Positions 878 to 16,047 are shown, counted from the first letter of the stretch. The stretch is DNA of 16,047 nt from Acidobacteriota bacterium (GCA_040005235.1 JBDTZG010000093.1:1-16047); one strand, 5' to 3'. Notes: generated by a model from the sequence alone, not told the origin. Translations and numbers: made by a program.

Positions 878-958
878 AGCGTGATACGGACATAGCAGCC
901 GACCGATTTTCCCAAAGAATGCCGTCAAGGCCGGTGCGCCGCACCCAGGAGGGGTTTC

Positions 959-1429
959 GTGACGAAGACCTTCAAGGTTTCTCTCGGTGGCCCGTTGTTA
1001 GACCAGGTCGATGCAATGGCCGCCAACGACGGGGTGGAGATCGTGGAACTGATCCGCCGAATTCTTTGGCTTTGGTTTCTGGCCGGGTCGGAAAGGCTGG
1101 TCCCGTCCGGTAAGGAGTCTTTACCAGCCGACCTCGTGCTCCTTATGGCCGAAGCGCTTCGGAGCTATAGGCAGTCGCTTGACGCTTATGTGCGAATCCG
1201 GAGACTCCTGCTCGAGCATCCGGTCGTGGACGGAAGCGGACCCCTGGTCGTGACCGTTTTGTCCGATCTGGAGATCTTCGGTGATGCCGTTTCCCAGGTA
1301 CCGGGACTGGTCGAACAGGTCGAAGACGGCTGGCGGGTGGTCACGCAACTCCGCCAGACGGCGAAGCTTGGGATCCTCGTTCCCTACGATCCGGAAAGCT
1401 CGGCTCCCGGGGACGTGAGCGATCCTTAG
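959..1429 (+). CDS. Hypothetical protein with an N-terminal ribbon-helix-helix (CopG/MetJ/Arc-like) segment
   Basis: GTG start preceded by AGGAGGGG. The N-terminus KTFKVSL-GGPLLDQVDAMAANDG-VEIVELIRRIL fits the beta-strand/helix/Gly-turn/helix RHH pattern. The C-terminal part is unrecognised. Confidence 0.6.
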   Translation: MTKTFKVSLGGPLLDQVDAMAANDGVEIVELIRRILWLWFLAGSERLVPSGKESLPADLVLLMAEALRSYRQSLDAYVRIRRLLLEHPVVDGSGPLVVTVLSDLEIFGDAVSQVPGLVEQVEDGWRVVTQLRQTAKLGILVPYDPESSAPGDVSDP

Positions 1430-1449
1430 GTCCTGAACGGGGAAAGTGC

Positions 1450-2133
1450 TCAGGCGGCACGTGCGGCTGCGGCTTCGAAAACCCGGCGTGGGAGCGGGTC
1501 GCCCTCGGCCGGGTCGTCCCACTTGGCTACATCTGCGCCGATCGGAACGGCAGGCTCTTGAGGTTTCGGCTTCGAAAAGACCAGACCGAGATCCTGCAGG
1601 CCGGTTTCCATGGTCTGGGCGACTCTGATGGTTGTGAGCAAACCCTCTAGGGCTTTCCGTGCCGCGGCCAGGACGAGGGGCAAGTCTTCGTCAACCTCCA
1701 GGTCGCGCAAGCGCTTGATTTTCGGCAAGTCCTCTCGGGCCTGCTCTCGAACCTGGCGGACGCTGAAGTTGCGTACGTTCTGGGCGACCCTGGAGAAGTC
1801 CGACTCCGGCATTTCGACTTCGGGCGCTGCGGCCTGCTTCATTCGCTCGGCCTTGACCGCCGCCTTCAAATCCGAAAGGGCCACCCCGAACAGTTCCGCC
1901 ACATGCGCCTGGCTCCGGCAATGGCTCTCCAACGCCTGCCGGTTAGCTGTCGAAGGCCGGATCGCTTCGCAGCAGGCTCGGACTTCTTGGGGAGAGGGCT
2001 GCCAGAGCCCCTCCTGCCACTCGCCCTCCGGATGCGATTTCCGGGCGATCCGGGAAAAAAACTCGTCGAGCGCGAGGCGCAGGCGCGCTTCTGGCGCCTC
2101 GCCCTTTTCGGGATCTTTAGGCTTCGTACGCAT
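1450..2133 (-). CDS. Hypothetical protein (227 aa) with an N-terminal CC-x15-HC-x4-H putative metal-binding domain and a helical C-terminus
   Basis: ATG at 2133 (MRTKPK) has GAGGAAG upstream, so it is preferred over the track start at 2169. Motif: RKSHPEGEW...W.PS..E.RACCEAIRPS...LESHCRSQAHVAELFGV. Confidence 0.75.
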   Translation of the reverse strand: MRTKPKDPEKGEAPEARLRLALDEFFSRIARKSHPEGEWQEGLWQPSPQEVRACCEAIRPSTANRQALESHCRSQAHVAELFGVALSDLKAAVKAERMKQAAAPEVEMPESDFSRVAQNVRNFSVRQVREQAREDLPKIKRLRDLEVDEDLPLVLAAARKALEGLLTTIRVAQTMETGLQDLGLVFSKPKPQEPAVPIGADVAKWDDPAEGDPLPRRVFEAAAARAA

Positions 2134-2333
2134 CGTCTTCCTCGGATATTTCTTGAAGTCCCCCCACATACGAAGAGTGCGCGCCGGAGGCGAAAGAGGG
2201 ACGTAATATGACCTCCAAAGGAAACAAGTAGCCGCATTCTAGGACGAGTGGGCGAAAACCGGAACGCCTGGCGCGATGACCACGTTGATCCGGAGTAAAG
2301 ATCCCGCCGACGGCTGTTTCGAGCGCCGTTTTG

Positions 2334-2368
2334 TTGCGCTGGCCAGGATTCGGTGGGACAATCCCACC
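2334..2368 (+). promoter_or_regulatory. Promoter of the TA operon (TTGCGC-17bp-GACAAT, extended TG) with the overlapping inverted repeat GGTGGGA-CAA-TCCCACC
   Basis: -35 at 2334-2339 and -10 at 2357-2362. A perfect 7-bp inverted repeat at 2352-2368 covers the -10 and abuts ATG 2369. No SD sequence. Confidence 0.65.
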
Positions 2369-2602
2369 ATGGCAACAGCGACGGCAGACGCGAAGCGGCG
2401 CGTTGTACTTCCTGCGGTAAGCCCCGGGGACATCTTCGATATCCAGAGTCAGGGCGAAGGTCGCTTGCTTTTGGTGCGCCTTGAGCCTCCGAAGCCCGAA
2501 CCCAAGATGAGCCTGGAGCGGTGCGTCGAAGTGATCGCCGCGACCCCCCTTCGGCCGACGATGACCTGGGAAGCTCTGAAGGCCATCACCCGGGAGCCAT
2601 GA
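2369..2602 (+). CDS. vapB: Antitoxin, AbrB/MazE-like (VapB type), 77 aa
   Basis: MATATADAKRRVVLP...PGDIFDIQSQGEGRLLLVRL fits the swapped-hairpin AbrB pattern. ATGA overlap with the downstream PIN gene. The start is reassigned from 2276 to 2369. Confidence 0.8.
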   Translation: MATATADAKRRVVLPAVSPGDIFDIQSQGEGRLLLVRLEPPKPEPKMSLERCVEVIAATPLRPTMTWEALKAITREP

Positions 2603-3024
2603 TTCTCCTCGACACCAATGTCCTGATCTACGCGTCCACCGCTCGATCGCCTTTCTTCGAGTGGGCACGGCAAACCATCGCCGAAGGAGTTTCGGAGGGT
2701 GGAGCGGCCGTCAACACAGTGTGCCTCTCGGAGGTCTGCGTCGGCGATGCCGAACCGGAGCTCGTCGCCGACCGGCTCCGAAGTTGGGGGATTACCCTTC
2801 TCGATATCCCGGTTGCCGCCGCGGAGCCGTGCGCCAGTGCGTACTTTCGCTATCGAGAGCGTCGGCGCGCTGAATCCGGTCGCGACTCTCCCTCGATACC
2901 GTTGCCCGACTTTTTTATCGGCGCGCATGCCATGGTCATGGGCTGGCCCATCGCGACGGCTGACGAGGGACGTTTTCAAACGTATTTCCCTGCGGTCGCA
3001 CTCCGAACGCCTCTATTGGGCTGA
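2599..3024 (+). CDS. vapC: PIN-domain ribonuclease toxin (VapC family), 141 aa
   Basis: MILLDTNVLIY, CLSEV, LPDFFIGAHA and IATADEGRF supply the conserved PIN acidic residues. It is translationally coupled to the antitoxin (ATG at 2599). Confidence 0.93.
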   Translation: MILLDTNVLIYASTARSPFFEWARQTIAEGVSEGGAAVNTVCLSEVCVGDAEPELVADRLRSWGITLLDIPVAAAEPCASAYFRYRERRRAESGRDSPSIPLPDFFIGAHAMVMGWPIATADEGRFQTYFPAVALRTPLLG

Positions 3025-3047
3025 CCTGCCGACGACGAGCAGCCGGT

Positions 3048-4457
3048 CTACGACACCAGCCCCTGCAGCAGCGCCCACAACGCCGCCACATGCTCCCGCT
3101 CGGTCGCCTCGGCGCCGATCGAGACCCGGACCATCCACCGCCCTTGGAGCACCGCGGGCGTCAGGTAGGCCTTGCCAGAGGCGTTCGCCTTTTCGGCCCA
3201 ATCCAGTGTGTGGCGGTCGAGGTCCTCGGCTTCGAGGCCGTGGGGTTCATGGCGGATGCAGAGGGTTTGCAGCGCTACGGGGGCGAGCAGACGCCAGTTG
3301 GGGGTCGCCTGAACCTGCTCGGCGAGCCATTGGGCGTTGGCCAAATCGCGGCGCAGGCGGGTGCGGAGCCCTTCGAGGCCCTGTTCGCGGACCAGGAACC
3401 AGAGCTTGAGGGCGCGGAAGCGGCGGCCTAGGGGGAGGCCCCAGTCGCGGAGGTTTTTTACCTGGTCGTCCACCGCGGAGCGGAGGTAGCTGGGCCGGGT
3501 GGACATCACGCGGATCAGGTGGTCGGGGTCGCGCACGTAGTAGAGCGAGCAGTCGAAGGCGACGCCGAGCCATTTGTGGGCGTTCCAAACCAGCGAATCC
3601 GCTCCTTCGATGCCGTTCCACATCGGGCGGCATTCCGGCAGGATCATCGCCGAGCCGGCCATCGCCGCATCGACGTGGAGCCAGAGGCCGTGCGCTTGGG
3701 CGATCTCGGCGATTTCGGCCAGAGGATCGAAGGCGGTAGTGGTCGTGGTGCCGACCGTTGCGACGATCGCGCAGGGCACGTGGCCCGCGGCGAGATCGGC
3801 TTGGATTGCCGCCGCCAGCGCTTCGGGGCGCAGCGCGAAATTCTCGTCGGTTTCCACCGGGCGGACGTTGTCGCGGCCGAATCCGGCGAGCAGGGCGGCT
3901 TTTTCGACCGAGCTGTGGCTGTGCTCCGAGACGTAGACCCGTAGCGCCTTCGGCTCCGCTTGGAGACCCCCTCGCACGAGAGAGAAATCCGTCGTGCGCT
4001 CCCGGGCGCAGAGCAGCGCGAGCAGCGTGCTGGTGGACGCCGTGTCTTGGATCACGCCGCTCCAGGCATCGGAGAGGCCGACCGCCTGGCGCATCCAATC
4101 GGTCGTCACCTCTTCGAGCTCGGTGAGCGCGGGGCTCGATTGCCACGACAGGCCGAGCACGCCGAGGCCCGTGCTCAGTAGATCGCCGAGCACGCTCGCG
4201 AGCGAGGCGTTCGAGGGGAAATAGCCGTAGAAGCCGGGGTGCTGCCAGAGCGACAGGCCGGGCACGAGCAGACGGTCGACGTCTTTGAGGATGTCGGCGA
4301 ACGGCTCTGCCGTTTCCGGCGGAGCGGCGGGGAGGTTCGCCCTGATCTCGCCCGGGGCGCTCCGCGCCATCACCGGGCGGTCGCTCAAGCCCGCGCGATA
4401 GTCGGCGAGCCAATCGACCAGCTGGTGGCCGAAGCGGCGAAACTCTTCCGGGGTCAT
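3048..4457 (-). CDS. ddc: PLP-dependent aromatic L-amino acid (DOPA) decarboxylase, group II
   Basis: MTPEEFRRFGHQLVDWLADY, WQHPGFYGYFP, SPALTELE, HSSVEKA, LHVDAAMAG, NAHKWL (PLP lysine) and PLGRRFRALKLW. From recall, it closely resembles Pseudomonas putida DDC. Confidence 0.93.
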   Translation of the reverse strand: MTPEEFRRFGHQLVDWLADYRAGLSDRPVMARSAPGEIRANLPAAPPETAEPFADILKDVDRLLVPGLSLWQHPGFYGYFPSNASLASVLGDLLSTGLGVLGLSWQSSPALTELEEVTTDWMRQAVGLSDAWSGVIQDTASTSTLLALLCARERTTDFSLVRGGLQAEPKALRVYVSEHSHSSVEKAALLAGFGRDNVRPVETDENFALRPEALAAAIQADLAAGHVPCAIVATVGTTTTTAFDPLAEIAEIAQAHGLWLHVDAAMAGSAMILPECRPMWNGIEGADSLVWNAHKWLGVAFDCSLYYVRDPDHLIRVMSTRPSYLRSAVDDQVKNLRDWGLPLGRRFRALKLWFLVREQGLEGLRTRLRRDLANAQWLAEQVQATPNWRLLAPVALQTLCIRHEPHGLEAEDLDRHTLDWAEKANASGKAYLTPAVLQGRWMVRVSIGAEATEREHVAALWALLQGLVS

Positions 4458-4485: not shown

Positions 4486-5706
4486 CTATCGGCCGGGCGG
4501 GCTTTCCGGTGCCTGGGGCGCAGGCGGCGGCGTCGCCTCGGGAGAGGGGAGCGGCGCCAACGGGCTGGCCGGGCTCTCAGGAGTCGCGGCGGCGGCAGCC
4601 GCCGGAACCCGGGCCGGGGCGTCCGCGGCTTCCAGCGGATCTTCGGGCGGTACTCCGATCAAGTGCCGGTATTCGGCGGCCTCGGCCGGCGGCCGGGCGA
4701 CGATCAACGAGTCTTTCTCCAGCTCCTGCTCGTACTGCGCGAAGCGGTCCTTGAACAGCCGGTTGCGCTCGCGGGCTTCGATCTCGGCCTGCACCTCAGG
4801 GAAGGGGCGGACATAGGAGGGGCGCCGCTCCGCCATTTGCAGCAGGTGGGTGCCGCCGCGTCCTTCGGTGGGTTCGCTCGATGCGCCGGGCGCGAGATTC
4901 CAGGCGGCCTGCACGATCCCGGGATCGAGATCGCTCTGCGACAGCCAGCCGAGATCGACGACGGCGCTGCCGAGCCCCTTGTCCTCGAACGGTTTCGCGG
5001 CGTCGGTCAAGGACTGGCCCGCGGCGACCGACGCGCGGATCTGGCTCGCGATCTTCGCGCGTTCCGCGGCGCTCGACGTCTTCTCGGACAGGATGACGGC
5101 CTCGCGCAGGTGAACCTGCTCGGGCACGCGGAAGAGGTCGACGTTCTTCTGGTAGTAGCGCCGCAGGTCGTCTTCTTCCAGCTTGATCTTTCCTTGGACT
5201 TCGCGGCCGATCAGCTCGCGGACCCGCAGGTTCTTTCGCAGGTTTTCGCGCAAGTCTTTCTCGTTCATGCCGCTCTGCGCGAGCGCCCCCCGGAACTGCT
5301 CATCCGAGGTGATGTTGAACCCCTCGCGCATCTGTTGCACCGAGGCGTCGACTTCCTGCTCGGTGGCCGAGATGTTCAGCTGGTCGGCGCGCGATTGGAG
5401 CAGCAGATCCTCGTAGAGGTTTTTGAACACCACCTCGCCCGCGCTCGCAAGCGCCTGATCGCGCTCCTGCGGGTCGAGGTTCTTGCGGGCGATCTCGTGG
5501 CGCATGTCCTCGCGCGCGACGTCGTAATCGTGCTGCGTCGCGATGCGGTCGTTGATCCGCAGGACGATCTTGCCGACCACCTCGGCGGCGACCGGCCGCG
5601 CGGTAGCGAGGGGGGTGAGCCCGAGGAGCATCAGCACGGCGCCCGACGCGACGCGCTTCGGGAGGGAACGGAGCTTCAAGTCATCGGCTGGCGGTTTTGG
5701 GGTCAC
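4486..5706 (-). CDS. SurA-like periplasmic chaperone / parvulin (PpiC-type) peptidyl-prolyl isomerase
   Basis: Signal peptide, then AEVVGKIVLRINDRIAT (SurA N-domain), EQEVDASVQQMRE, LRRYYQKN..F..PEQVHL, a degenerate parvulin domain and a Pro/Ala-rich tail. GTG 5706 with GAGG upstream was chosen, but the start is uncertain. Confidence 0.85.
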   Translation of the reverse strand: MTPKPPADDLKLRSLPKRVASGAVLMLLGLTPLATARPVAAEVVGKIVLRINDRIATQHDYDVAREDMRHEIARKNLDPQERDQALASAGEVVFKNLYEDLLLQSRADQLNISATEQEVDASVQQMREGFNITSDEQFRGALAQSGMNEKDLRENLRKNLRVRELIGREVQGKIKLEEDDLRRYYQKNVDLFRVPEQVHLREAVILSEKTSSAAERAKIASQIRASVAAGQSLTDAAKPFEDKGLGSAVVDLGWLSQSDLDPGIVQAAWNLAPGASSEPTEGRGGTHLLQMAERRPSYVRPFPEVQAEIEARERNRLFKDRFAQYEQELEKDSLIVARPPAEAAEYRHLIGVPPEDPLEAADAPARVPAAAAAATPESPASPLAPLPSPEATPPPAPQAPESPPGR

Positions 5707-6571
5707 GGTAGACGCCTCGGTATTCGAAGGGGAGATTGCGCGCATAGATCTCGACATTGTAGCGATGCCGGGCCTCGCCCACCAGCTTACCGACCACCGA
5801 ATCCGCCAGCGCGCGCCGCAGGCGGCGGCGAATCTCGGGCCGGGCGCGTTCTAGGGGAATCGTCTCGGCCGGAAAATGCTCGGTGACCTGGAAGATGTGA
5901 AACCCGTAATCGGCCGATACCACCGGGCTCACCTCTCCCGGCTGGAGGCGAAAGATCACCTCGGCGAAAGTTGCGGGCAGATCGCTTGCGGCCAGCTCGC
6001 CCTGGTCGCCGCCGCGCTCGGCGCTCGGATCCCGCGAGTACTTGCGGGCGATCTGCGCGAAGTCGGCCCCGGCGGAGAGATCGCCCAGCGCGCGCTCCGC
6101 TTCGCTCCGCCGCTCGACCAGCACCTGGCGCAGCCGTACCCTCTCGGGCCGCGCGAACTCGGCCCCGTGATCCCGGTAATAGGCGGCCACCTCCGCATCG
6201 GTCGGCTCGGCGACCTCGGCGGCGAGCAGCGCGTCGATCCCGCGGCGCCCACGGCTCCCGGCCGATTCCGCCGTCGAGGTCGCCGGATCGGGCTCCGGGG
6301 GTGCGAGCTTGCGTGCGGCCGCCAGGTGTTCGAGCAGCCGCTCGTCGAGGAACTGATCGAACAGGGCGGACAGCACGTCGCTCGCGAGCAGCCCGGCGGA
6401 TTCGCCCACGACTTCCGACACGTAACCCCGGAACTGCGGATAGCGAAGCTCCTCCCGGTCGATCCGCGCTACGGCATCCGCGGCCGGCGGGAGCGGGCGT
6501 CGGCAGGCCGAAAGCTCCAGCAGGCCGAGGCAGGCGGCCAGGACGAGGATCGACGACGAGGCGCGGGTCAT
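5681..6571 (-). CDS. Lipoprotein foldase, parvulin (PpiC-type) peptidyl-prolyl isomerase, PrsA/SurA-like
   Basis: Lipobox LSAC. Parvulin motifs GADFAQIARKYSRDPSAERGGDQG and LQPGEVSPVVSADYGFHIFQV. It lies 9 bp downstream of mfd. Confidence 0.88.
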   Translation of the reverse strand: MTRASSSILVLAACLGLLELSACRRPLPPAADAVARIDREELRYPQFRGYVSEVVGESAGLLASDVLSALFDQFLDERLLEHLAAARKLAPPEPDPATSTAESAGSRGRRGIDALLAAEVAEPTDAEVAAYYRDHGAEFARPERVRLRQVLVERRSEAERALGDLSAGADFAQIARKYSRDPSAERGGDQGELAASDLPATFAEVIFRLQPGEVSPVVSADYGFHIFQVTEHFPAETIPLERARPEIRRRLRRALADSVVGKLVGEARHRYNVEIYARNLPFEYRGVYRDPKTASR

Positions 6572-6580
6572 TGGGCGAGC

Positions 6581-9500
6581 TCAGTGGGCGAGGCTTTCGA
6601 GCGTCGCGGTCGCGGTCGCCAGGGCGTCCGCGCCGGAGCTGACCGGAAGGGTCAGGACGCCGGTTGGGCTGAAGCTCGCGCCTTGCAAAGTCGACACCAG
6701 GTCGATCAGCCGGGCGACGTCCACCCGGGCGTCGCGGCGCAGGCGGATGGTCAGCTCGCGTCCGCGGCTGGCGATCGACTGGACCCGCAGCGCTTCGGCC
6801 GCCCGCTTGAGCGCCGCGACCTCGACCAGGGTCAGCACAGCGGCGGGCGGCGGGCCGAAGCGATCGGTCAGCTCGGCGAGCACCTCTTCGCGCGACTGCT
6901 CGGCGGCGGCGATCTTGCGGTAGATCTCCATGCGCAGGTTCGCGTCGGCCACGTACCCTTCCGGGATCGACATCGCGACAGGCAAATCGATCTGCGCCGA
7001 CGGCGCCTCCTCGATCGCCTCGCCGCGAAGCTCGCGGACGGCCTCTTCGAGCAGCTTCAAGTAGGTTTCAATGCCCACGGCGGCGATCTGGCCGCTCTGC
7101 TCGGAGCCGAGAAGGTTGCCGGCACCGCGGATTTCGAGGTCGCGCGCCGCGATACGGAACCCGGCGCCCAGGTCGGTGAATTCCCGAATCGCCGCCAGGC
7201 GCTTGCGCGCCGATTCGGACAGGACGCGATCGGACGGCACCAGGAGGTAGCAATAGGCGAGCTGGTTGCTCCGCCCGACTCGGCCCCTAAGCTGGTAGAG
7301 CTGGGCCAGGCCGAAGCGTTCGGCGCGGTGGACGATCATGGTGTTGACGTTCGGAATGTCGATGCCGTTTTCGATGATCGTGGTGGCGAGCAGGACGTCG
7401 AACTTGCCTTCGGTGAAGGCGTGCATTCGCTTGGACAGCTCCGCCTCTTCGAGCTGGCCGTGGCCGACGGTGACCCGCACCCCGGGCACCAGATCGCGCA
7501 GATAGGTGAGCATCTTCTCGATCGTCTCGACACGGTTGTAGACGTAATACACCTGGCCGCCGCGCTCGATCTCATGCTCGATCGCCTCGCGGATCACCTC
7601 CGGATTGAACGGCAGGATCGCGGTCTCGACCGCCATCCGGTCTTTGGGCGGCGTCTCGATCACCGACAGGTCGCGCACCCCGGCGAGCGACAGCTGGAGG
7701 GTACGGGGCACCGGAGTGGCCGACATCGCGAGAACGTGAACGTTCTTCTTCGCCTGTTTCAAGCGTTCCTTCTGGGCCACGCCGAAGCGCTGTTCCTCGT
7801 CGACGATCATCAAGCCCAGCTTCGGCATCTCGATGTCTTTCGACAGCAGCCGGTGGGTGCCGATCAAAATGTCGACCGTCCCCTCTTTCAGGCGTTTCTG
7901 GAGGATTTTGGTTTCCGGCCCCGAGCGGAAGCGGGAAATCATCTCGATCCCGACGGGGAAACCGGCGAAGCGTTTGCGGAAGGTTTCCAAGTGCTGGTCG
8001 GCGAGGATCGTGGTCGGCGCGAGCACCGCCACCTGGAATCCGGCGTCCACCGCCTGAAACGCCGCGCGCATGGCGACCTCCGTCTTGCCGTAGCCGACGT
8101 CGCCGCACAGCAGCCGGTCCATCGGCCGCTCGCTGCGAAGGTCCTGCCGGATCGCGCCGATCGCCTCGTGCTGGTCGGCGGTCTCTTCATAGGCGAACGC
8201 CGCGGCGAACTGGCGCACCCAATCGGAATCCTCCTCGCCGCCCATCGACGGAGCCTTCGCCAACTGGCGCTCGGCGTAGAGCTTGAGCAGCTCGTCCGCC
8301 ATGTCGCGCAGGCTCGACTTGACCTTGGCTTTAGCCTTGTTCCACGAGGTGCCGCCGAGCTGGTCGAGGCGCGGCGCCACCCCTTCGATGCCGCTGTATT
8401 TCTGCACCTGATCGAGGCGCGAAAGCGGCAGAAGCAGACGCCGGCCGCTCGTGTACTCGATCTCCATGACTTCGGATTCGATCGCCGCGGGTGCGCTCAT
8501 GTCGCGCAGCGCGGGCGGCAGGCGGGTGACGTCTTCGACCCCGCCGCGCACCGAGCGCAAGGCGATGAACCGGCCGATGCCGTGGTCGGAATGAACCACG
8601 TAGTCGCCCACCTTCAAATCGCGCAGGCCGGAGAGGAATGGGCCAAAGCGCGATTTGGAAGTCCGCCGCTGGAGCTTCGCCTGGGGCAGGATCTGCTGCT
8701 CGCCGTAGAGCGCCACTCCCGCCGCCGGCAGGCGGAAGCCGCGCGACAGCTCGCCCGCGATCAACTCCACCCCATCGCGCCCGATCTCGATCTCGCGCCC
8801 GGCGAGGAGGTCCTCCATCCGCGCGTGGTGGGCGGGTGGAGCGACGATCACGCAGCGCTCGCCGCGTGAGCGGGCGGTCGCCACCTCCTGCGGAAAGCGC
8901 GGCAGCTGGCCGTGGAAGAGATCCGTGGTGGAAGCGGCGAAATCGATCGCCTCCACTCGGGCGCCGTCGCGGATCTCCGACAGCACCAGGTCGCCCACCC
9001 GGACTTCGGCGCCCGAAAGCTGCGCCTCGACCGCCTCGGCCGGCCACTCTAGATCTTCCGGCGAGATCGCCAGCCGCCGATGGTCGCGCCGCGCGCTCCA
9101 ATCCGCGGCGAGCCGCCCGGCGTGGTGCTCCACCTCGGCCGCGAGAGCCGGGGGATCGACCGCCAGGATCAATGGGAGCAGGGGGCGCGGCGAGGAGCGC
9201 TCGGTGGACGCCAAGGTGTCGGCAAGCGTTGCCGTGCGTGCGCCCAGCAAAGGCAGGTAATTCTCCCAGCCGGGAAACCCGCCCGACTGCCGCAACGCGG
9301 CCAGTCGTTCTGCCGCCTCCGGACCGAGATCGGTGCCGCCGAGCGACCCGAGCAGATCGGCCAGTTTGCCCGCCGCCGCCGGCCCGCCGGGAAACAGAAG
9401 CAGCGGCAGGATACGGATCGAGTCGAGCGTGTCTTCCGAGCGTTGGCTCTGGGCATCGAACCAGCGAATCGCCTCGATCGTGTCGCCGAACAGGTCGAGC

Positions 9501-10072
9501 CGGATCGGCGCGTCCTCGCCCGGCGGAAAGAAATCGACCAAACCGCCGCGCACCGCGTACTCGCCGATCTCGTAGACCAGGTCGGTCCGGTGGTAGCCGA
9601 AGCGGTCGAGATGCCGCACCAACTCATCGATCGGCAGGTCGTCTCCCGGCTTGACGTCGAGCGCCGAGGCGGAAAAATCGGCGCGTGCCGGCAGCCGCCG
9701 GAAGAGAGCGCGCGGGGTCGCGACCACCGTCCGCGCGGACCCCGAAACGATCCGGTCGAGCGCCACCGACTCCTGCGCCCGGACAAGCAGCGAGGTCTCG
9801 GTCTCCTGATAAGGGGTGAGCGATGGGGCGGGAAAGTACACCGCCCGCCCCTCCCCGAACAGCTGCACCGCCTCCAGCCAGGCGAGCGCGTCCGCCTCGC
9901 GCGGCACGACCACCAAAAGCGGCCGGCCGAGATCCTCCGCAAGCAGCTCGCCCACCCACGCCGCGGCAGGGGCCGGCAGGCGTACGACATCGCCCAAACG
10001 CTGGACCAGCGCCCGGTAGGGGGCGCTCGCCCGAAGTTGCTGGGAGGCCGGAGCCCAAGATCGGTCGCTCAT
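6581..10072 (-). CDS. mfd: Transcription-repair coupling factor (about 1163 aa)
   Basis: UvrB-homology region (EYAVRGGLVDFF), RID (GDYVVHSDHGIGRF), PMDRLLCGDVGYGKTEVAMRAAF, DEEQRFGV, SATPVPRTL, QLRGRVGRS and TRG motif RDLEIRGAGNLLG. The true start is near 10072 (or 10087), not 10942. Confidence 0.98.
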   Translation of the reverse strand: MSDRSWAPASQQLRASAPYRALVQRLGDVVRLPAPAAAWVGELLAEDLGRPLLVVVPREADALAWLEAVQLFGEGRAVYFPAPSLTPYQETETSLLVRAQESVALDRIVSGSARTVVATPRALFRRLPARADFSASALDVKPGDDLPIDELVRHLDRFGYHRTDLVYEIGEYAVRGGLVDFFPPGEDAPIRLDLFGDTIEAIRWFDAQSQRSEDTLDSIRILPLLLFPGGPAAAGKLADLLGSLGGTDLGPEAAERLAALRQSGGFPGWENYLPLLGARTATLADTLASTERSSPRPLLPLILAVDPPALAAEVEHHAGRLAADWSARRDHRRLAISPEDLEWPAEAVEAQLSGAEVRVGDLVLSEIRDGARVEAIDFAASTTDLFHGQLPRFPQEVATARSRGERCVIVAPPAHHARMEDLLAGREIEIGRDGVELIAGELSRGFRLPAAGVALYGEQQILPQAKLQRRTSKSRFGPFLSGLRDLKVGDYVVHSDHGIGRFIALRSVRGGVEDVTRLPPALRDMSAPAAIESEVMEIEYTSGRRLLLPLSRLDQVQKYSGIEGVAPRLDQLGGTSWNKAKAKVKSSLRDMADELLKLYAERQLAKAPSMGGEEDSDWVRQFAAAFAYEETADQHEAIGAIRQDLRSERPMDRLLCGDVGYGKTEVAMRAAFQAVDAGFQVAVLAPTTILADQHLETFRKRFAGFPVGIEMISRFRSGPETKILQKRLKEGTVDILIGTHRLLSKDIEMPKLGLMIVDEEQRFGVAQKERLKQAKKNVHVLAMSATPVPRTLQLSLAGVRDLSVIETPPKDRMAVETAILPFNPEVIREAIEHEIERGGQVYYVYNRVETIEKMLTYLRDLVPGVRVTVGHGQLEEAELSKRMHAFTEGKFDVLLATTIIENGIDIPNVNTMIVHRAERFGLAQLYQLRGRVGRSNQLAYCYLLVPSDRVLSESARKRLAAIREFTDLGAGFRIAARDLEIRGAGNLLGSEQSGQIAAVGIETYLKLLEEAVRELRGEAIEEAPSAQIDLPVAMSIPEGYVADANLRMEIYRKIAAAEQSREEVLAELTDRFGPPPAAVLTLVEVAALKRAAEALRVQSIASRGRELTIRLRRDARVDVARLIDLVSTLQGASFSPTGVLTLPVSSGADALATATATLESLAH

Positions 10073-10192
10073 GCGGCCGGAAAGCATAGCGCGGGGGGGC
10101 GGGTTTCCGTGAACCCCAGATAGCCACCGTGCTATCGTTCGGTCGTAACCCCACCGCGTATTCACGAACCTTTGACCCGAGGGCTCGAAATC

Positions 10193-10954
10193 ATGACCGT
10201 CGCCTCGCCGCCGCCTCCGCCCCCGCAAAATCCGTATGCCCCGCAACCGCCGGTCGGACCGAAAAAGACCTCGCCTTGGGTTTGGGTGGGCGCCGGTTGT
10301 CTCGTGCTGCTCCTGTTGGGCTGCGCGACCTGCGTGTTCATCGGCTACAAGGCGAAGCATCTCGCCGAGAAATACAAGGACAACCCCGAGCTGTTGGCGG
10401 CCGAGCTGATGATCAAGGCGAACCCGGACCTCGAAGAGGTCAGCTCCGACAAGGACGCCAAGACGATTACCGTCCGCGACAAGAAGACCGGCAAAGAAAT
10501 GACCCTCAACTTCGAGGACATCAAGAACGGCAAGTTCTCGATGGAGGGCGAGGACGGCTCGAAGGTCGACATCGGCGACGGCCAGGTCCAGGTGACCGAC
10601 GAAAAGGGCCAGACAACCAACATCGCCGGGGGAGTCGGCACGTCGAACCTGCCGGATTGGCTGCCCATGTACCCTGGCGCCACGGCGCAGAGCTCGTTCT
10701 CTTCCACGGGAGCGGACAGCGGCGCAGTGACGATGCTTGAGTCGACCGATTCGGCCGATCAGGCGCTCGCGTTCTACGAAGGGAAGCTCAAGGACGCCGG
10801 CTTCACGGTCGAAAAGAACGCCTACCAGGTGAACGGCAAGACGGCAGGCGGCACGGTCACCGCGAAGAACGGCGGCGACAAGGGCGAGGTGAACGTGGCG
10901 GTCGCAGACCAAGGCGGCAAGACGTCGATCACCATCACCCACAGCAACAAGTAG
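10193..10954 (+). CDS. Single-pass membrane-anchored hypothetical protein with an extracytoplasmic domain
   Basis: Pro-rich N-terminus and KK followed by a hydrophobic helix (PWVWVGAGCLVLLLLGCATCVFIGY). Then a beta-rich region and LPDWLPMYPGA...ALAFYEGKLKDAGF. Strong codon bias; ATG 10193 with GAGG upstream. Confidence 0.85.
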   Translation: MTVASPPPPPPQNPYAPQPPVGPKKTSPWVWVGAGCLVLLLLGCATCVFIGYKAKHLAEKYKDNPELLAAELMIKANPDLEEVSSDKDAKTITVRDKKTGKEMTLNFEDIKNGKFSMEGEDGSKVDIGDGQVQVTDEKGQTTNIAGGVGTSNLPDWLPMYPGATAQSSFSSTGADSGAVTMLESTDSADQALAFYEGKLKDAGFTVEKNAYQVNGKTAGGTVTAKNGGDKGEVNVAVADQGGKTSITITHSNK

Positions 10955-10960: not shown

Positions 10961-12994
10961 ATGGCGAGGGGGACCGCACGCGGCATCGCCCTCCCTCGCC
11001 TATTCGGTTCGTTTCTCGCGTTCGCGGGGATCGCTTTGGCCCCCGCTTTGGCTCTCGGGGCGACCCTGCCCTCACCGCCGAAACCCCCGTGGGAGGCGTG
11101 GCTCGACCCTCGCGAATTGCCCCGCCTGCCGCCGGGCGATCAAGTCCTCTTGCGCAGCAGCCACTGCCCTAGCGGTTGCCGGTTCGACCGGACGTCGGAC
11201 GGCGATCCTCGTTTCCTGCGGATCGAAAACGGCGAGGCGGTGATCTTCGAAGAGGCGGGCGCCGGGGCGGTCGTAAGAATCTGGATGACCCAGGGGCCGG
11301 GCGTTTCGGCGCCGCTCGATCCGGCGATCCGGTTGCTCGTGCGGGTGGACGGCGAGGTCAACCCACGGATCGACTTGCCGCTGCCGGCCCTGTTCGACGG
11401 CACGACGCCGGGGTTTACCGCGCCGCTCGCCTTCGATCGCGAGCCCTCGAGCGGCGGCAACGTCCTCTACCTGCCGATCCCCTATCGCAAAGGGTGCAAG
11501 ATCTCGCTGACCGGCGCGGAGCACGAACGGCTCTGGTTCCAGGTCACGTTCCATCGCCTCGCCCAGGCGGGGGCGATCTCGACCTACACCGGCGCCGAGG
11601 ACCTGTCGGCTTGGCGGGCGATCCTGGCGCGCGCGGGGAACGATCCTTGGCCCGACTCGCAAAACGCTCCGGGTGCGCGCACCGACTCGGGCAGCGCGAA
11701 CCTGATCCCCGGCGGAGTTGTCTCGATCCCCGCTCCCGCCGCCCCCGGGTACCTGCGCGCAGTCCGGCTGCGCACCAGCCCGAGGGGCGCCGAGCGGCTT
11801 CGCCTGCGCTTGACGTTCGACGGCGAGCGCCGGGCCGATCTGCCTCTCGCCGATTTCTTCGCCGTGCGCGGAGCGGTCGTGCCACCGCGCGGGTTGCTGT
11901 TCGGACTGGCGGACGACGGCTTTCTCTACGCCTACTTCCCCGCGCCGTTTTTCGCCAATGCCAAGGTCGAGGTCTTCGACGCCGGGGCGCCCGGCTCCCG
12001 CCCCGTCAAGGTCGAATGGCAGATCGGCTGGAACGCCGAGGTCCCGGCGGCCGACAGCGGCCGGTTCGCAGTGGCATTCTCGGTCGCCGGGGAATCGATG
12101 CCCGAGGGCGACCTGCGGCTTCTGGACGCTTCAGGGAGCGGCAAATGGGTGGGGCTTTTCGCCGAAATCGGCAGCGTGCGCACGCTTTCGCGCGAAGTGC
12201 TCGAAGGGGACGAGCGGGTTTACCTCGACGGCTCGCTCCACCCAGGCCTCTACGGCACCGGGGTGGAAGACCTGTTCAACGGCGGCTTCTATTTCGACCG
12301 GGGTCCGTTCGCGCTGCCGCTCCACGGCTCGCCCGCGCATCGCATGACGCCGGCGGGCGAGGACGTCACCTCGGCGTATCGCCTGTTCCTGTCGGATGCG
12401 ATCCCTTTCCGGAACGAAATTCGCGCCGGCCTCGAAACCGGACCGACCGGCAACTTGGCCGTCCGCGCCCGGACGGTCGCCTACTACTACTCCCGACCCC
12501 TTCCGGCGCTGGCGAAATTTGATCGGCTCGATCCTTCCGACGCCCTCTCGGCGCTGGCCCACTCCTATGGGGTGACGGCGCCCGACGCGGCCTGCGCGGC
12601 CTTCCTGTCCCGATGGGAGGGGGGACCGCTCGTGGCGCCCGAAGAGACCGCGACTTCTTGCACCTACGCGGCTCCCGGAGGGCGGGACCGCTTCATCCTC
12701 CGCAGGCTTGCGCCGAACGGTGCCCTTCGCCTTCGCCGCCGCTTGGACGTGGGCCGGCCGAATCCGGCGGCCGACGTCTTTGTAAACGGCGTCCGGGTCG
12801 GCGCGTTCCCGTTCCAAGAGGCGAACCCCTTTCGCCGCCTGCGCGAGGTGGATCTGGACATCCCCCCCGGCGTGGCGGCCGGGGCGACGGAGCTGCATTT
12901 CGAGGTCGTGCCGCGGTTTTCCGCCGCCGGAGGGGAGCAGCACTCCGAGGTGATCTATGAGCTCTGGGCGGGCGAGCGACGTTCTCCACAGTAG
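10961..12994 (+). CDS. Secreted DUF2961-domain protein (glycoside hydrolase family 172-like)
   Basis: Signal peptide, GAGAVVRIWMT, YLPIPYRKGCKI, and EGDERVYLDG...LYGTGVEDLFNGGFYF...SAYRLFLSDAIPF, all typical of DUF2961. It lies 6 bp after the upstream gene. Confidence 0.85.
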   Translation: MARGTARGIALPRLFGSFLAFAGIALAPALALGATLPSPPKPPWEAWLDPRELPRLPPGDQVLLRSSHCPSGCRFDRTSDGDPRFLRIENGEAVIFEEAGAGAVVRIWMTQGPGVSAPLDPAIRLLVRVDGEVNPRIDLPLPALFDGTTPGFTAPLAFDREPSSGGNVLYLPIPYRKGCKISLTGAEHERLWFQVTFHRLAQAGAISTYTGAEDLSAWRAILARAGNDPWPDSQNAPGARTDSGSANLIPGGVVSIPAPAAPGYLRAVRLRTSPRGAERLRLRLTFDGERRADLPLADFFAVRGAVVPPRGLLFGLADDGFLYAYFPAPFFANAKVEVFDAGAPGSRPVKVEWQIGWNAEVPAADSGRFAVAFSVAGESMPEGDLRLLDASGSGKWVGLFAEIGSVRTLSREVLEGDERVYLDGSLHPGLYGTGVEDLFNGGFYFDRGPFALPLHGSPAHRMTPAGEDVTSAYRLFLSDAIPFRNEIRAGLETGPTGNLAVRARTVAYYYSRPLPALAKFDRLDPSDALSALAHSYGVTAPDAACAAFLSRWEGGPLVAPEETATSCTYAAPGGRDRFILRRLAPNGALRLRRRLDVGRPNPAADVFVNGVRVGAFPFQEANPFRRLREVDLDIPPGVAAGATELHFEVVPRFSAAGGEQHSEVIYELWAGERRSPQ

Positions 12995-13062
12995 GCGGTA
13001 CTTGAGTACAGACCACCCCCGGTCTGAGCCAGCTCACCCTTGAATGGGTTCGCTAAGGTGAA

Positions 13063-13518
13063 TTAACGACTCGCATTCGCCGACGTCTCAGTGCAGCCAG
13101 CTCCCGGTGGCAAGCGACCGGAGGAAAGTTGCAGCCGCACGGTCACCTCGTTGAGCTCCGCTTCGACCTGACGGCGAACCCATTCGCCGAGAGCCACGGC
13201 TCGCGCCGAGGGGGCGCCGGGGCCGCGGCTTGGCCGCCGCTCAAAAAACCGGGCCGCTTCGGTCACCGCCTCTGGGGTGGAGCCTACCGCGGCGGCCAGC
13301 TTGGCGCGGGTGGCCGGGCGGGGACTCTTCATGCCCGTTTCGTACGCCGAGATCTGGGACGGATGCATTTCGGCAAGCTCTGCGAGCTGTTCTTGGGTCA
13401 GGCCGCGTGACGCGCGGAGCAGCTGAACCCAGACGGCGGGGTCATCGATCGCGCTGCGCTTCAACAGCTCCGTGCGCGAAGTGACGGGTCGTTCGGTGCG
13501 CTTCGGGTAGTGTGGCAT
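13063..13518 (-). CDS. XRE-family helix-turn-helix regulator (about 151 aa)
   Basis: LLRASRGLTQEQLAELAEMHPSQISAYETGMKSPRPATRAKLAAAVG is a canonical HTH_3/XRE. The start is placed at ATG 13518. The track's extension to 14313 overlaps two other genes and looks non-coding. Confidence 0.88.
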   Translation of the reverse strand: MPHYPKRTERPVTSRTELLKRSAIDDPAVWVQLLRASRGLTQEQLAELAEMHPSQISAYETGMKSPRPATRAKLAAAVGSTPEAVTEAARFFERRPSRGPGAPSARAVALGEWVRRQVEAELNEVTVRLQLSSGRLPPGAGCTETSANASR

Positions 13519-13619
13519 AACCTTTTCGCCTACTTTCTCCCGTGTCAACGGGAATCCCATTCCGCGCCCCCCGGGAACCGGACTCTTCCGGCCGCCCCGA
13601 CACCCCAAGGAGGAATGAC

Positions 13620-13934
13620 GTGAAACCCACCTTCCGTCGCCTTGCCGTCCCCGTGATCTTGGTCTTGACGTTGACTCTAACCGCTCCATCGCCCGGCTTC
13701 TGCGCCCCTGAAGGGGCGGGCCTGCGCTGGTACGATTGGCTCGGATTTCTTTCCAACCTCTGGGCACCCCAGGGTTGCAGTGTCGAGCCAGTCGGCGGGT
13801 GCGGCCGGGCAAGCGCCACAGCTCCACGGGAAAACGGCTGTAGTGTCGATCCCGTCGGCCGCTGCGTTGAAGCGGTCGCCCCCCAGCAGGACCACGGTTG
13901 CAGTCTGGATCCCGTCGGCCGCTGCACAGACTGA
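13620..13934 (+). CDS. Secreted 104-aa pro-peptide with three GCS[VL][DE]PVG[GR]C repeats
   Basis: AAGGAGG (13607-13613) lies 6 nt before GTG 13620. Sec-type signal MKPTFRRLAVPVILVLTLTLTAPSPG, then a Trp-rich segment and three Cys-bracketed repeats with synonymous codon variation. Confidence 0.85.
   Translation: MKPTFRRLAVPVILVLTLTLTAPSPGFCAPEGAGLRWYDWLGFLSNLWAPQGCSVEPVGGCGRASATAPRENGCSVDPVGRCVEAVAPQQDHGCSLDPVGRCTD
13773..13925 (+). repeat. Three 30-bp coding repeats (13773-13802, 13836-13865, 13896-13925) separated by divergent 33- and 30-bp linkers
   Basis: The repeats translate as GCSVEPVGGC, GCSVDPVGRC and GCSLDPVGRC. GATCCCGTCGGCCGCTGC is identical in copies 2 and 3. Confidence 0.95.
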
Positions 13935-13987
13935 CCGGGCGCAGCCTGCATCCGCAGCCGGTAGCTCGGGAGCGGGCACCGGCTGCT

Positions 13988-15481
13988 TCAACCCCGGGTC
14001 CCACCGCCGAAACGAGGAACCCCGTTGCCCGCCGGAGCACTCGCCGCGACCAGCGCACGGTGAGCTTGGCGCGCCAGCTCCGCGGTAGCCCGGTCTCGTT
14101 CGGCAGCATCCAAGAATAAGCGCACAGCTGCCAGCTCTTCCCTTTCGATTCTGAGGGATCGGAAGATTGCGAGGGTCTGGCGGGCCAGGATCTTCGTCTC
14201 CGCAGGGCGCCCGGTCGAAAGGTAGACCTCCGCCAGGTCGAGCGCTGCGAGCGCCGCATCGTACGAGATCTGAATTGCTGCAAAGTCGCGCCAGACCTGG
14301 TCGAGCGCGGCAATGGCGTTTTCGAACCGTCCGGTGGCTGCCGCGACCCTCCCTTCGAGCCAAAGCACTCGAATCAGATCGAGCGCCTCCCGCCGCGACT
14401 CAGCTAGAGCGCGAATCTGCGGCAGCAACGCCACAGCCTCCACACCCCGCCCCAATTCCACCAGATTGGCGGCGAGGTTGAACTGTGCCACCAGTCGGTC
14501 GCGCGGGTCGCTTCGCTCGTCGAACGTCGCACAGGCGTTCTGCAGCGCCCCGATAGCACCCTCTGAATCGTTGCTATGCTGGAGGAGAACGGCCCGGCTG
14601 AGCCAGAGGAATCCCAGCTCCCCCGGCTGAGCCGCTTCAAACGCCTGGTCCTGCAGCGCTAAAGCCCCGCCGAAACGGCGTTGATCTCGGTAAAGCTTGG
14701 CTTCGGCGTCGAGCATTCGGGCGCGGGAGAACGGAGAGGGGAATCCCACCGGCGGGGCGACATCCTTCGCCCGGACATATGCAATATTCGCCTGATCGAA
14801 GGCGCCTTCCGCTCGGCGGGCGTTTCCGAGATAGACCCAGGCATACTCGCGGGAGGCCGCCTGAAGCGCCTCTGGGGCGACGAGGCGTTCGGCGACCCAA
14901 ATGCCCAACTCAGCAAGGCAGATCGACTCTTCGAGATCCCGCACTGTGGCCCGGTCGCTTTCGTGAGCCAGCTTTTCGACCAGCGCCCAGGTGGGGGCTA
15001 CGGGCATCCGCTCGAGGGTGGAGCGGCGGGCGGCCGGTTGTTTCTGGAGCGAGCGAAGCTCTACCCACATTGCGGCAGCTTGGGCGCGGGCGAGGTCAAA
15101 CATCCGATCGCGCGCCCCGGCGAACAGCTCGCGCCGCACCTCTCGGCTGATTCTGGCGGCGGCCCGTTCGAGATCGACCCGAATCTCCGTCGGCAGATCG
15201 GCACCCAGGGTATGGACCACCTCGTCGGGGCGAATCGAGCGCACGGCGGTCAGCGCGCTCTCCGCCGCTCCAGGTGCCGCCTTCCAGTGGGCGGCGAACT
15301 GGTCGAGCTGTTCTCGCGCGAGCGGCTCCTTCGCCTTGCCCAGCTCCAGCTTGCCGAGCGCTCCGGGCGAGATCCCGGCAAGCTCGGCCGCCTGGCGCTG
15401 GTCCAAGCCCAGCACGTCTCGAATTACCTTGATCGCGGCGTTGGTCGCCGGCGCAAGGGGCGGTTCAGGCGTCTCTTCCAT
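13988..15481 (-). CDS. XRE-HTH plus tetratricopeptide-repeat transcriptional regulator (497 aa)
   Basis: N-terminal IRDVLGLDQRQAAELAGISPGALGKLELG (XRE HTH). C-terminal TPR-like helices include AWVYLGNARRAEGAFDQA, AQFNLAANLVELGRGVEA and LEGRVAAATGRFENAIAAL. GAGGT RBS upstream of ATG 15481. Confidence 0.88.
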   Translation of the reverse strand: MEETPEPPLAPATNAAIKVIRDVLGLDQRQAAELAGISPGALGKLELGKAKEPLAREQLDQFAAHWKAAPGAAESALTAVRSIRPDEVVHTLGADLPTEIRVDLERAAARISREVRRELFAGARDRMFDLARAQAAAMWVELRSLQKQPAARRSTLERMPVAPTWALVEKLAHESDRATVRDLEESICLAELGIWVAERLVAPEALQAASREYAWVYLGNARRAEGAFDQANIAYVRAKDVAPPVGFPSPFSRARMLDAEAKLYRDQRRFGGALALQDQAFEAAQPGELGFLWLSRAVLLQHSNDSEGAIGALQNACATFDERSDPRDRLVAQFNLAANLVELGRGVEAVALLPQIRALAESRREALDLIRVLWLEGRVAAATGRFENAIAALDQVWRDFAAIQISYDAALAALDLAEVYLSTGRPAETKILARQTLAIFRSLRIEREELAAVRLFLDAAERDRATAELARQAHRALVAASAPAGNGVPRFGGGTRG

Positions 15482-15690
15482 GCGACCTCGCGTTGGGTTT
15501 CATAGAGCAGAGTGAGGTTCAGCCCCTGAACGTGACAACAGAAGATAACGACCAACCCCAGGTACGAAAGCGCCACCGAACCGAGCGCTTCCTCGCAACC
15601 GAAGGCCTTTTAATATGCTGGTAGGTAGTCTGGCGCGACCTTCGGAAGTTTGCAAGCGCTTTCGGCGCAGATGCTTCTAGCCTCTGGCGC

Positions 15691-16047
15691 ATGGCTGATG
15701 CGCCCCCCTCGATCTCGAATCCCCAGCTCCCTGTGGACTCCCCTCTCGCGGCGCGCCCCCCTCGCCCGGCCGCCCACCCGGACTTCCGGTCGATCGTCGC
15801 CGAGTGCATGGCCCGCGGCGATCAGGCTCTCGCGCAGTCGGACCTTGCCGCCGCAGCACGCCATTACGCCACGGCCGGGGTGACCTACCGGTTCCTCGGC
15901 GCGGCCGATCTCGCGGCAACCGCCTTTCTCGAGCTGGCGGCGGCGCATCTGGCCCTCGGCCAGCGGGACCGTTTTGCTGCCGTCGCCGCAACCCTCCGCG
16001 GGCTCCGGCAGCCCGGCACCCCCGAGGGAATCCTGTTCGTCCGGGTC
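15691..16047 (+). CDS. Partial TPR-like helical protein, running off the right edge and absent from the ORF track
   Basis: ATG 15691 opens 119 stop-free codons: MADAPPSISNPQLPVDSPLAARPPRPAAHPDFRSIVAECMARGDQALAQSDLAAAARHYATAGVTYRFLGAADLAATAFLELAAAHLALGQRDRFAAVAATLRGLRQPGTPEGILFVRV. GC3-biased codons. TAGCCT 7 nt upstream may indicate a leaderless start. Confidence 0.7.
   Translation, partial: MADAPPSISNPQLPVDSPLAARPPRPAAHPDFRSIVAECMARGDQALAQSDLAAAARHYATAGVTYRFLGAADLAATAFLELAAAHLALGQRDRFAAVAATLRGLRQPGTPEGILFVRV

Follow-up and report, generated by a model that had tools for sequence, protein, structure and literature searches.

The window analysed here is a stretch of 16,047 bp from a soil bacterium of the Acidobacteriota and makes up the whole of contig C127 in a genome of 6.22 Mb and 140 contigs. 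The region reported, 13063-16047, holds four genes (Table 1). These encode a short XRE-type regulator, a small exported peptide with repeated cores, a helix-turn-helix (HTH) protein with tetratricopeptide repeats (TPR), and a small TPR-like protein. The peptide and HTH-TPR genes converge with a gap of 53 bp (13935-13987), and the XRE and peptide genes diverge from an intergenic region of 101 bp (13519-13619). A first-pass annotation, made from the sequence alone, had proposed a peptide communication cassette of the RRNPP or arbitrium type at this place. Its coordinates, both gaps and its three genes all hold when compared with the open reading frames (ORFs) and Pfam matches, but the fourth gene (15691-16047) had been missed. 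We call the place of the HTH-TPR gene, which encodes the candidate receptor, the a-position and that of the XRE gene the b-position. As described below, the region is a complete copy, save for the end of the fourth gene, of a lineage-specific four-gene regulatory module.

Table 1. Features of the module and of the rest of the contig (positions in the window)
Feature	Position	Strand	Remarks
XRE-type regulator, b-position	13063..13518	-	151 aa; divergent from peptide gene
HTH of XRE protein, residues 33-83	13270..13422	-	Pfam HTH_3
Palindrome CCCGTGTCAACGGG, candidate operator	13539..13552	.	between XRE start codon and peptide ribosome-binding site
Shine-Dalgarno AAGGAGG	13607..13613	+	6 nt 5' of GTG start; read from sequence
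Exported multi-core pro-peptide gene	13620..13934	+	104 aa, GTG start
Signal-peptide-like N-terminus, ~residues 1-28	13620..13703	+	three K/R, then 10-aa window with mean Kyte-Doolittle 2.8
Trp-rich segment WYDWLGFLSNLW	13728..13763	+	W48 nearly invariant (alignment, 21 paralogues)
Core 1 GCSVEPVGGC	13773..13802	+	orthogroup conservation 0.89
Core 2 GCSVDPVGRC	13836..13865	+	G73 and G80 invariant in 21 paralogues
Core 3 GCSLDPVGRC	13896..13925	+	Cys-bracketed like cores 1 and 2
G+C-rich hairpin, possible terminator	13954..13986	.	inverted repeat between convergent genes, no T-run
Cytoplasmic HTH-TPR regulator, a-position, candidate receptor	13988..15481	-	497 aa; convergent with peptide gene
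TPR-like superhelix, residues 149-480	14042..15037	-	helix pairs in AlphaFold2 model
HTH domain, residues 12-65	15287..15448	-	AlphaFold2 helices 12-65; Pfam HTH_3 at residues 18-50, 2.6e-4, below cut-off
Divergent intergenic region, HTH-TPR/small TPR-like gene	15482..15690	.	conserved blocks 15496-15507, 15528-15539, 15624-15655 (five-cassette alignment)
Small TPR-like protein, N-terminal part, fourth gene	15691..16047	+	cut by contig end
PLP (pyridoxal phosphate)-dependent decarboxylase	3048-4457	-	same contig
SurA/PrsA-like peptidyl-prolyl isomerases, two	4486-5757 and 5681-6571	-	matches below curated cut-offs; diderm context
Mfd/TRCF	6581-10942	-	same contig
DUF2961 protein	10961-12994	+	adjoins module on XRE side

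We found no curated family for the peptide in Pfam or NCBIfam. Using an iterated peptide profile over 72,595 stop-to-stop ORFs (45 aa or longer), we recovered 29 family members in the genome. The plan of the family is a signal peptide, a W..L..LW(A) segment and 1-4 copies of G-x3-[DE]-P-x-G, which belong to 10-residue cores of the form G-x3-[DE]-P-x-G-x-[C/P] with Pro/Ala-rich linkers between the copies. Signal peptides were judged by a heuristic of charge and hydrophobicity, not by a dedicated predictor; 27 of the 29 paralogues meet all its criteria, and the basic and hydrophobic parts are found in all 29. A GGAG or GAGG lies 5' of the chosen start in 28 paralogues, a count that is not independent, as the starts were picked partly by this motif. 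At the DNA level, the three cores of the window peptide appear as 37-nt direct repeats with spacings of 63 and 60 nt in a gapless direct-repeat search; Tandem Repeats Finder reported no repeat in the gene.

The Cys-bracketed cores emphasised by the first-pass annotation are present in three copies, but they do not define the family. At least two such cores were found in 10 of the 29 paralogues, which makes the bracket a sub-clade trait, and most other paralogues carry G-[LIMA]-x2-D-P-x-G-[RKQ]-P with no cysteine. Among 197 scorable proteins with at least two cores, 138 have at least two that are Cys-bracketed; the set is biased, as it consists of the highest-ranking matches to a profile in which Cys forms were abundant. 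By mean column conservation in the orthogroup of the window peptide (8 sequences), the cores (0.84-0.89) and the Trp segment (0.89) exceed the linkers (0.57-0.71) and the signal peptide (0.70). Cores are more similar within a gene than between genes, both for the 197 proteins (0.735 vs 0.573) and for the window's genome (0.698 vs 0.483). In one subfamily, four orthologues have three copies of GIQIDGNG and the fifth has three of GILIDGNG, so the copies changed together. By analogy, such a pattern is expected of precursors that contain several copies of a single small product.

Related nonamers were also seen in three large secreted proteins from public metagenome data (P0047, P0075 and P0133; 669-783 aa), where dozens of tandem G-I-L-I-D-P-N-G-[KR] units sit between N- and C-terminal domains. 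Long DPNG-repeat proteins of this type match no Pfam family and are absent from the window's genome. A search for them among 121 genomes of the order gave one match, which was repeat-only.

Searching the bacterium's own genome with tblastn, we obtained 46 matches for the HTH-TPR protein and 13 for the peptide at E < 1e-3. A receptor profile recovered 75 ORFs at E <= 1e-5, 42 of them below 1e-50. Of the 29 peptide genes, 27 are located within 700 bp of one of these 42 TPR ORFs, although only 1.96% of the genome lies that close (binomial P = 3e-44). One of the remaining two is 1.75 kb from a TPR ORF, and the other (C91) has no TPR ORF on its contig. Seen from the other side, 34 of the 42 TPR paralogues are found within 700 bp of a peptide gene. 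The module is expanded to about 29 paralogous cassettes in this genome. Several of them are located on contigs of very small size or next to a contig end (C137, 4.2 kb; C90, 6.2 kb; C124; C127, 16 kb). It may be that the paralogous family breaks the assembly and that there are more copies than counted.

The genome belongs to the class Thermoanaerobaculia of the Acidobacteriota, to go by how its closest public metagenome-assembled genomes (MAGs) are named. A scan of one genome per species with a 3-row alignment found five related loci in four MAGs named Holophagales or Thermoanaerobaculia. All five have a convergent peptide gene, and a further XRE/TPR gene lies beyond it at four of them, the fifth being cut by the contig end. 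The conserved linkage on which the first-pass annotation had staked its idea is borne out in this way, peptide genes being enriched beside HTH-TPR homologues both here and in other species. The module is present throughout the bacterial family of the organism. The peptide profile matches in each of 18 further genomes from this family (3-41 matches each) and in three of 12 genomes from other families of the order, and the receptor profile at E <= 1e-20 in all 18 and nine of 12, respectively. Across an even sample of 401 genomes of the phylum, scored with lower sensitivity at 12 candidates per genome, only three match at E <= 1e-6, namely the window's own genome, one of its family and one broken ORF in the class. 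Public protein sets contain 2109 peptide cluster representatives at E <= 1e-3, a number that falls to 516 at E <= 1e-10. The named matches are all annotated as 'hypothetical' and have no Pfam domain, and a protein atlas points to Acidobacteriota clusters. That the genes form no functional unit, their adjacency being due to chance or the small ORF not being a gene, has next to no probability in view of the linkage statistics, the layout shared by five of five loci of other species, the Shine-Dalgarno motifs and signal peptides in nearly all paralogues, and the 2109 cluster representatives.

Within the genus, the cassettes behave differently from their surroundings. The best intact match to the window HTH-TPR protein in seven other genus genomes has 67% identity. 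The decarboxylase of the window has 83-93% identity in six of the seven (45% in the seventh, whose genome is 85% complete), and the DUF2961 protein has 74-85% within the genus. The syntenic site after the DUF2961 gene has no cassette in five of the six other genus genomes examined. In the sister species G003 (L093, G003:C15:53000-58100), which is syntenic with window positions 12995-15481, the XRE protein (90% identity) and the peptide (74%) are intact. The low HTH-TPR identity and the absence of the cassette from syntenic sites indicate that the cassettes are accessory and fast-changing.

The HTH-TPR protein has a Pfam TPR_12 match above the cut-off (3.1e-07), and its paralogues reach HTH_3 or HTH_31 above the cut-off. 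In public annotations its homologues are named 'helix-turn-helix domain-containing protein', 'transcriptional regulator with XRE-family HTH domain' or 'TPR repeat protein'. No RRNPP-specific Pfam family is among its matches at E <= 0.01. We found no membrane segment or signal peptide in the protein (top 19-aa mean Kyte-Doolittle 1.13). The AlphaFold2 model, for which 17 paralogues were in the alignment, has a predicted local distance difference test score (pLDDT) of 87 and a predicted template modelling score (pTM) of 0.72. In it, residues 12-65 form the HTH, residues 98-143 a long helix and residues 149-480 paired helices. With this model, Foldseek placed designed consensus TPRs and LGN on top, RapJ 8th and the Rap protein of phage phi3T 10th. 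The VIA-align Z-scores are 20.5-21.9 for LGN, 20.4 for RapI, 19.9 for RapJ (with PhrC), 19.3-19.6 for phi3T Rap (with its pheromone), 18.1 for apo NprR, 17.7 for NprR with NprX and 18-19 for subunits of the anaphase-promoting complex (APC/C); the Rap range is 18.4-20.4. Alignments of the TPR domain with RapI, RapJ, phi3T Rap and NprR span about 290 residues. PlcR, Rgg, PrgX and AimR are not among the 50 VIA-align matches listed. The modelled fold is of the peptide-binding TPR superhelix type, without singling out RRNPP. Complex prediction for TPR residues 100-482 with the mature peptide (residues 30-104) gave a score of 0.01, the peptide's own fold being uncertain, and this score speaks neither for nor against binding.

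A cytoplasmic receptor next to the gene of its ligand would also suit a monitor of secretion or of the envelope, in which the TPR domain binds the unexported precursor in the cytoplasm and reports the capacity of Sec or of periplasmic proteases. Such a private loop may moreover be simpler in a diderm envelope than signalling from cell to cell. We nevertheless consider a monitor improbable, as a single housekeeping read-out would scarcely call for about 29 diversified and apparently orthogonal copies, and the repeated cores with conserved linkers suggest the release of several identical small products.

Regarding the remaining genes of the module, two layouts can be distinguished among the cassettes. 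In class A, to which the window belongs, an XRE-HTH protein is convergent with the peptide gene and a second family member is divergent on the peptide's other side. The b-position protein of the window has Pfam matches to HTH_3 (1.6e-11) and HTH_31 (4.4e-11), and shares 60% identity with the b-position protein of C85 and 35% with a full-length b-position protein. It aligns with full-length HTH-TPR paralogues that occupy the b-position elsewhere. Its relation to the HTH-TPR protein of the window itself is visible by profiles only, BLASTP between the two being not significant (E = 1.2). The b-position member is full length in C79, C8, C18, C118 and C137, about 230-260 aa long in C8, C10, C59 and C111, and 136-151 aa long in C85 and the window. 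We also considered two ancient lineages, one for each position. This idea was dropped, as the b-position genes do not form one clade in a tree of 17 class-A receptors; the b-position needs two changes in this tree, and one change is allowed by 5% of bootstrap trees.

In class B, a TPR protein with the same TPR region lies downstream of a peptide gene of the same family, on the same strand. No Pfam HTH was detected in any of the 10 class-B proteins examined (C24, C63, C104, C20, C90, C139, C42, C103 and C81; loci L069-L078). All 10 carry an N-terminal H-L-x3-C-x2-C motif instead, and one has a zf-HC2 match just below the cut-off. The class-B N-terminus resembles zinc-binding anti-sigma factors (ZAS). 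On C103, genes for sigma-70 region 2 (11850-12032 and 14971-15162) lie directly upstream of two class-B-type proteins (12251-13675 and 15195-16838), only one of which belonged to the 10 examined. The likeness to a ZAS domain fused to a TPR domain rests on the motif and these sigma genes. In class B, one more residue separates His from Cys than in the canonical H-x3-C-x2-C, zf-HC2 comes near the threshold in a single protein, and the window protein is of class A.

The fourth gene emerged when the ORFs up to 6 kb from each of the 29 cassettes were clustered. Homologues of about 125-220 aa occur around 11 cassettes; most of them diverge from the HTH-TPR gene at the a-position, and one lies beyond the b-position gene. 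The window ORF 15691-16047 aligns with six full-length members at 28-38% identity, and Pfam gave sub-threshold TPR matches only for the family. These four module genes are the only widely recurrent ones; the next family, found in five neighbourhoods, is an HTH protein. No maturase, tailoring enzyme, protease, exporter or immunity family recurs within 6 kb of the 29 cassettes. PADLOC yielded generic HTH/TPR matches only (capH, RmrA and HTH_VI), with none for the peptide and the small protein.

These neighbourhoods bear on whether the peptide is a multi-core precursor of a ribosomally synthesised and post-translationally modified peptide (RiPP) or bacteriocin, unmodified or matured by enzymes encoded elsewhere, for which the regulators would be merely pathway-specific. 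The leader-like conserved Trp segment and the repeated cores between conserved linkers would agree with this, as multi-core RiPP precursors share such a layout. A Sec-type signal peptide is, however, unusual for RiPP precursors, the enzyme, protease and ABC exporter families expected of RiPP loci do not recur in the neighbourhoods, and about 29 precursors without linked tailoring genes would be unprecedented. We regard a RiPP precursor as very improbable.

We then turn to the DNA between the genes. An alignment of upstream regions revealed a CCC-N8-GGG dyad at a fixed place in all eight cassettes of the window's sub-clade. It is the perfect CCCGTTTAAACGGG in four, has one mismatch in two, reads CCCGTGTCAACGGG in the window and is weaker in C85. 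The form CCCGT-N4-ACGGG has six sites in the 6.2-Mb genome, three of them within 81 nt of a peptide gene. In the window alone, the single match of the palindrome is not significant, and an inverted-repeat search with a 6-nt seed misses it because its arms are 5 bp. Other sub-clades have palindromes of their own at the equivalent place, e.g. ACCCAAAATTTTGGGT and ACCGGAAAAGTCCGGT. The palindromes would fit dimeric HTH proteins, with each cassette having its own operator to control the divergent promoters of its peptide and XRE genes. A consensus scan found no sigma-70 promoter and no terminator. For the hairpin between the convergent genes, RNA folding of 13932-13992 gave -33.4 kcal/mol with z = -2.8 on the plus strand and z = -1.1 on the minus strand.

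Some further conserved elements lie upstream of other genes of the cassettes. A 32-nt block at 15624-15655 (TTGCAAACTTCCGAAGGTCGCGCCAGACTACC on the minus strand), which lies 35 nt before the small TPR-like gene, has 0-1 differences in four cassettes whose receptors are only 64-67% identical; a role as promoter, operator or RNA is conceivable. Most of 14 class-A a-position receptor genes have a T-rich TTGTC[AC]C motif 55-65 nt upstream (window 15528-15539), followed 17 nt later by GGCAAC in four of them, and this motif may be a lineage-specific promoter. Upstream of five class-B peptide genes (C20:14946-15269, C52:6076-6441, C126:66459-66743, C81:20308-20583 and C139:21756-22016) we noticed two adjacent inverted repeats, GCAACGC-variable loop-GCGTTGC and then CCCCGCGGGCGCGGGG, which could be an RNA leader or a protein site.

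In its architecture, the module resembles the RRNPP(A) systems with HTH output (PlcR/PapR, NprR/NprX, Rgg/SHP, ComR/XIP, PrgX and AimR/AimP). It shares with them a cytoplasmic protein with an N-terminal XRE HTH and a C-terminal TPR superhelix, an adjoining gene for a small exported pro-peptide, many diversified paralogues per genome and an operator, here a candidate one, beside the peptide gene, and its TPR fold aligns with NprR at a Z of about 18. This part of the analogy drawn by the first-pass annotation is real, but a relation in sequence to the RRNPP receptors was not detected. The module also differs from these systems in its host, a diderm acidobacterium whose nearest public loci are in Thermoanaerobaculia or Holophagales, in its four-gene make-up, with a small TPR-like protein and a further regulator of the XRE family, in the convergent orientation of the receptor and peptide genes, and in a peptide of about 100 aa with 1-4 G-x3-D-P-x-G cores, some of them Cys-closed. 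No phage or plasmid context was found for the module in the viral contigs scanned with the 3-row alignment, where nothing matched, and its neighbouring genes are housekeeping genes with nothing phage-like among them; the suggested arbitrium link is not supported.

A parallel with Rap-Phr systems can be drawn for class B, Rap proteins being TPR receptors without an HTH that have another N-terminal output domain. Multi-copy pro-peptides and large paralogue numbers are shared as well, and Rap proteins are the best bacterial structural matches to the window TPR domain. Propeptides with tandemly duplicated pheromone cores are described for Rap-Phr of phages phi3T and phi105 (PMC11343458), which makes Rap-Phr the closest documented parallel to the multi-copy cores. 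The differences are a three-helix bundle in Rap against an XRE HTH or H-L-x3-C-x2-C in the module, and Phr cores that are 5-6 residues long and have no D-P-x-G turn in common; homology in sequence was not detected. The XRE-TPR or MalT-like regulators have the same generic annotation names, and TPR_MalT matches are found below the threshold in the paralogues, but those names are silent on the obligatory peptide partner, the second regulator and the dozens of cassettes.

As far as their accessible parts go, the published surveys treat RRNPP(A) as Firmicutes systems and are limited to Firmicutes (PMC9765709, PMC10075063), and an outgroup for the RRNPP family is still wanted according to the portion available of another study (10.1101/2023.09.19.558401). 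Literature joining 'RRNPP' with 'Acidobacteri*' was not found, although survey supplements might list non-Firmicute candidates. No literature on such a module was found either, and a search combining Acidobacteria, quorum sensing, peptide and tetratricopeptide leads to sponge-symbiosis work. The first-pass statement that this is not a described system agrees with these searches and with the lack of a curated peptide family.

Taking the evidence together, the tight linkage across species, the concerted and conserved cores, and the TPR domain being kept while the output domain is swapped argue that the TPR domain and the peptide belong together. We consider the chances even that the module represents an independent RRNPP-like peptide/receptor family in a diderm. 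It would be a signal/receptor pair of the RRNPP type in function, and it is not demonstrably a member of RRNPP by descent. What it reports may be the density of cells, the identity of kin or how the envelope is faring. Binding of the peptide by the TPR domain, processing, re-import and density dependence are what we infer from this likeness.

By analogy, the simplest mechanism would be that of RRNPP systems, with export, cleavage, re-import and binding. The pro-peptide would be exported and cut into core peptides in the periplasm or outside the cell. A core peptide would then re-enter the cytoplasm, probably via the single Opp/Dpp-type permease of the genome, and bind the concave face of the TPR domain of its own cassette. 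Binding would shift the occupancy of the cassette palindrome (here 13539-13552) by the HTH proteins. The palindrome being situated where the peptide and XRE promoters would lie back to back, an autoregulatory loop would be closed. Peptide import in RRNPP systems is Opp-dependent. The sole SBP_bac_5 (OppA/DppA-type) gene of the genome was found together with two permease genes at C8:64197-67908 (L068 10197-13908), about 3.7 kb from the cassette C8:57982-60788, with a histidine kinase gene between them. Peptide import by an Opp/Dpp-type permease appears feasible from the presence of these genes.

A number of results weigh against an RRNPP-like signalling pair. The TPR fold is unspecific in the model comparisons, in which the eukaryotic LGN outscores every Rap and NprR. 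A search of the whole genome with Pfam RNPP_C (PF18768) gave no hit at E <= 0.01, and a PDB profile search with the HTH-TPR protein returned generic TPRs and XRE repressors, with PlcR reached via the HTH only (E = 1e-3). Eight of the 42 TPR paralogues are orphans with no peptide gene within 700 bp. For cell-to-cell action in a diderm host, a 10-residue peptide must exit and re-enter through the outer membrane, and a disulfide-closed core would be reduced in the cytoplasm. We found no output genes, and the palindrome is seen nowhere but in the cassettes. The presence of the core motif in large secreted proteins hints at an extracellular structural or binding role. Finally, the G003 locus keeps only residues 254-413 of the HTH-TPR protein beside its intact XRE and peptide genes.

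Several of these points would be expected if the peptide were instead the regulated output, that is an exported effector such as an antimicrobial, adhesive, protease-inhibiting or metal-binding hairpin, whose expression is controlled by the XRE and HTH-TPR proteins while the TPR domain senses another cue or protein. The cassettes' own genes would then be the sole visible regulon of the palindrome, DPNG-type repeats are known here to build large secreted proteins, and the G003 locus retains the peptide and its XRE regulator with a decayed TPR gene. Moreover, Cys-bracketed 9-residue loops are typical of stable extracellular peptides. The identity of at most 67% for intact matches to the window HTH-TPR protein in the genus against 74-93% for the neighbouring genes, together with the frequent absence of the cassette, also matches fast-evolving accessory effectors. 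An effector would, however, leave unexplained why nearly every peptide paralogue has a private TPR paralogue across species and why the TPR domain is retained when the N-terminal output domain is exchanged, and no immunity, exporter or maturation gene recurs beside the cassettes. We hold the effector explanation to be rather unlikely, though one to be taken seriously.

Returning to the RRNPP-like signalling pair, we tentatively suggest, with somewhat less than even confidence, a fuller reading. The cassettes may represent the first family of genetically encoded peptide pheromones in a diderm phylum (Acidobacteriota) to be sensed by cytoplasmic TPR receptors, independent of the RRNPP systems of Firmicutes. 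Dozens of apparently orthogonal channels per genome would be formed by multi-copy G-x3-D-P-x-G hairpin cores, the sensor would be mounted on an XRE HTH or on an anti-sigma-like domain, and the turnover would be fast, as for pherotype or kin-recognition loci.

The rest of the contig adds some context. The diderm foldase setting described by the first-pass annotation is supported by the SurA/PrsA-like isomerases in Table 1. Several ORFs in the stretch 1-3400 belong to no family. Rfam gave two matches in 12900-16047, both at chance level. For the window stretch, no RNA runs were listed and five DNA runs were, from two studies, two of the runs possibly being the source sample.

The Acidobacteria rank with the soil phyla that are most abundant and least often cultivated. 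If the signalling reading is true, peptide import with cytoplasmic TPR sensing, which is taken to be typical of Firmicutes and their phages, would extend to diderms through a counterpart that is convergent or very distant. It would give a name to a large uncharacterised family, with 2109 cluster representatives for the peptide and 30-50 regulators in each genome, and it would supply synthesisable 10-residue ligands together with candidate operators of 14-16 bp. Even if the peptides turned out to be regulated effectors, about 29 private regulator/peptide pairs per genome would be an unreported feature of these organisms.

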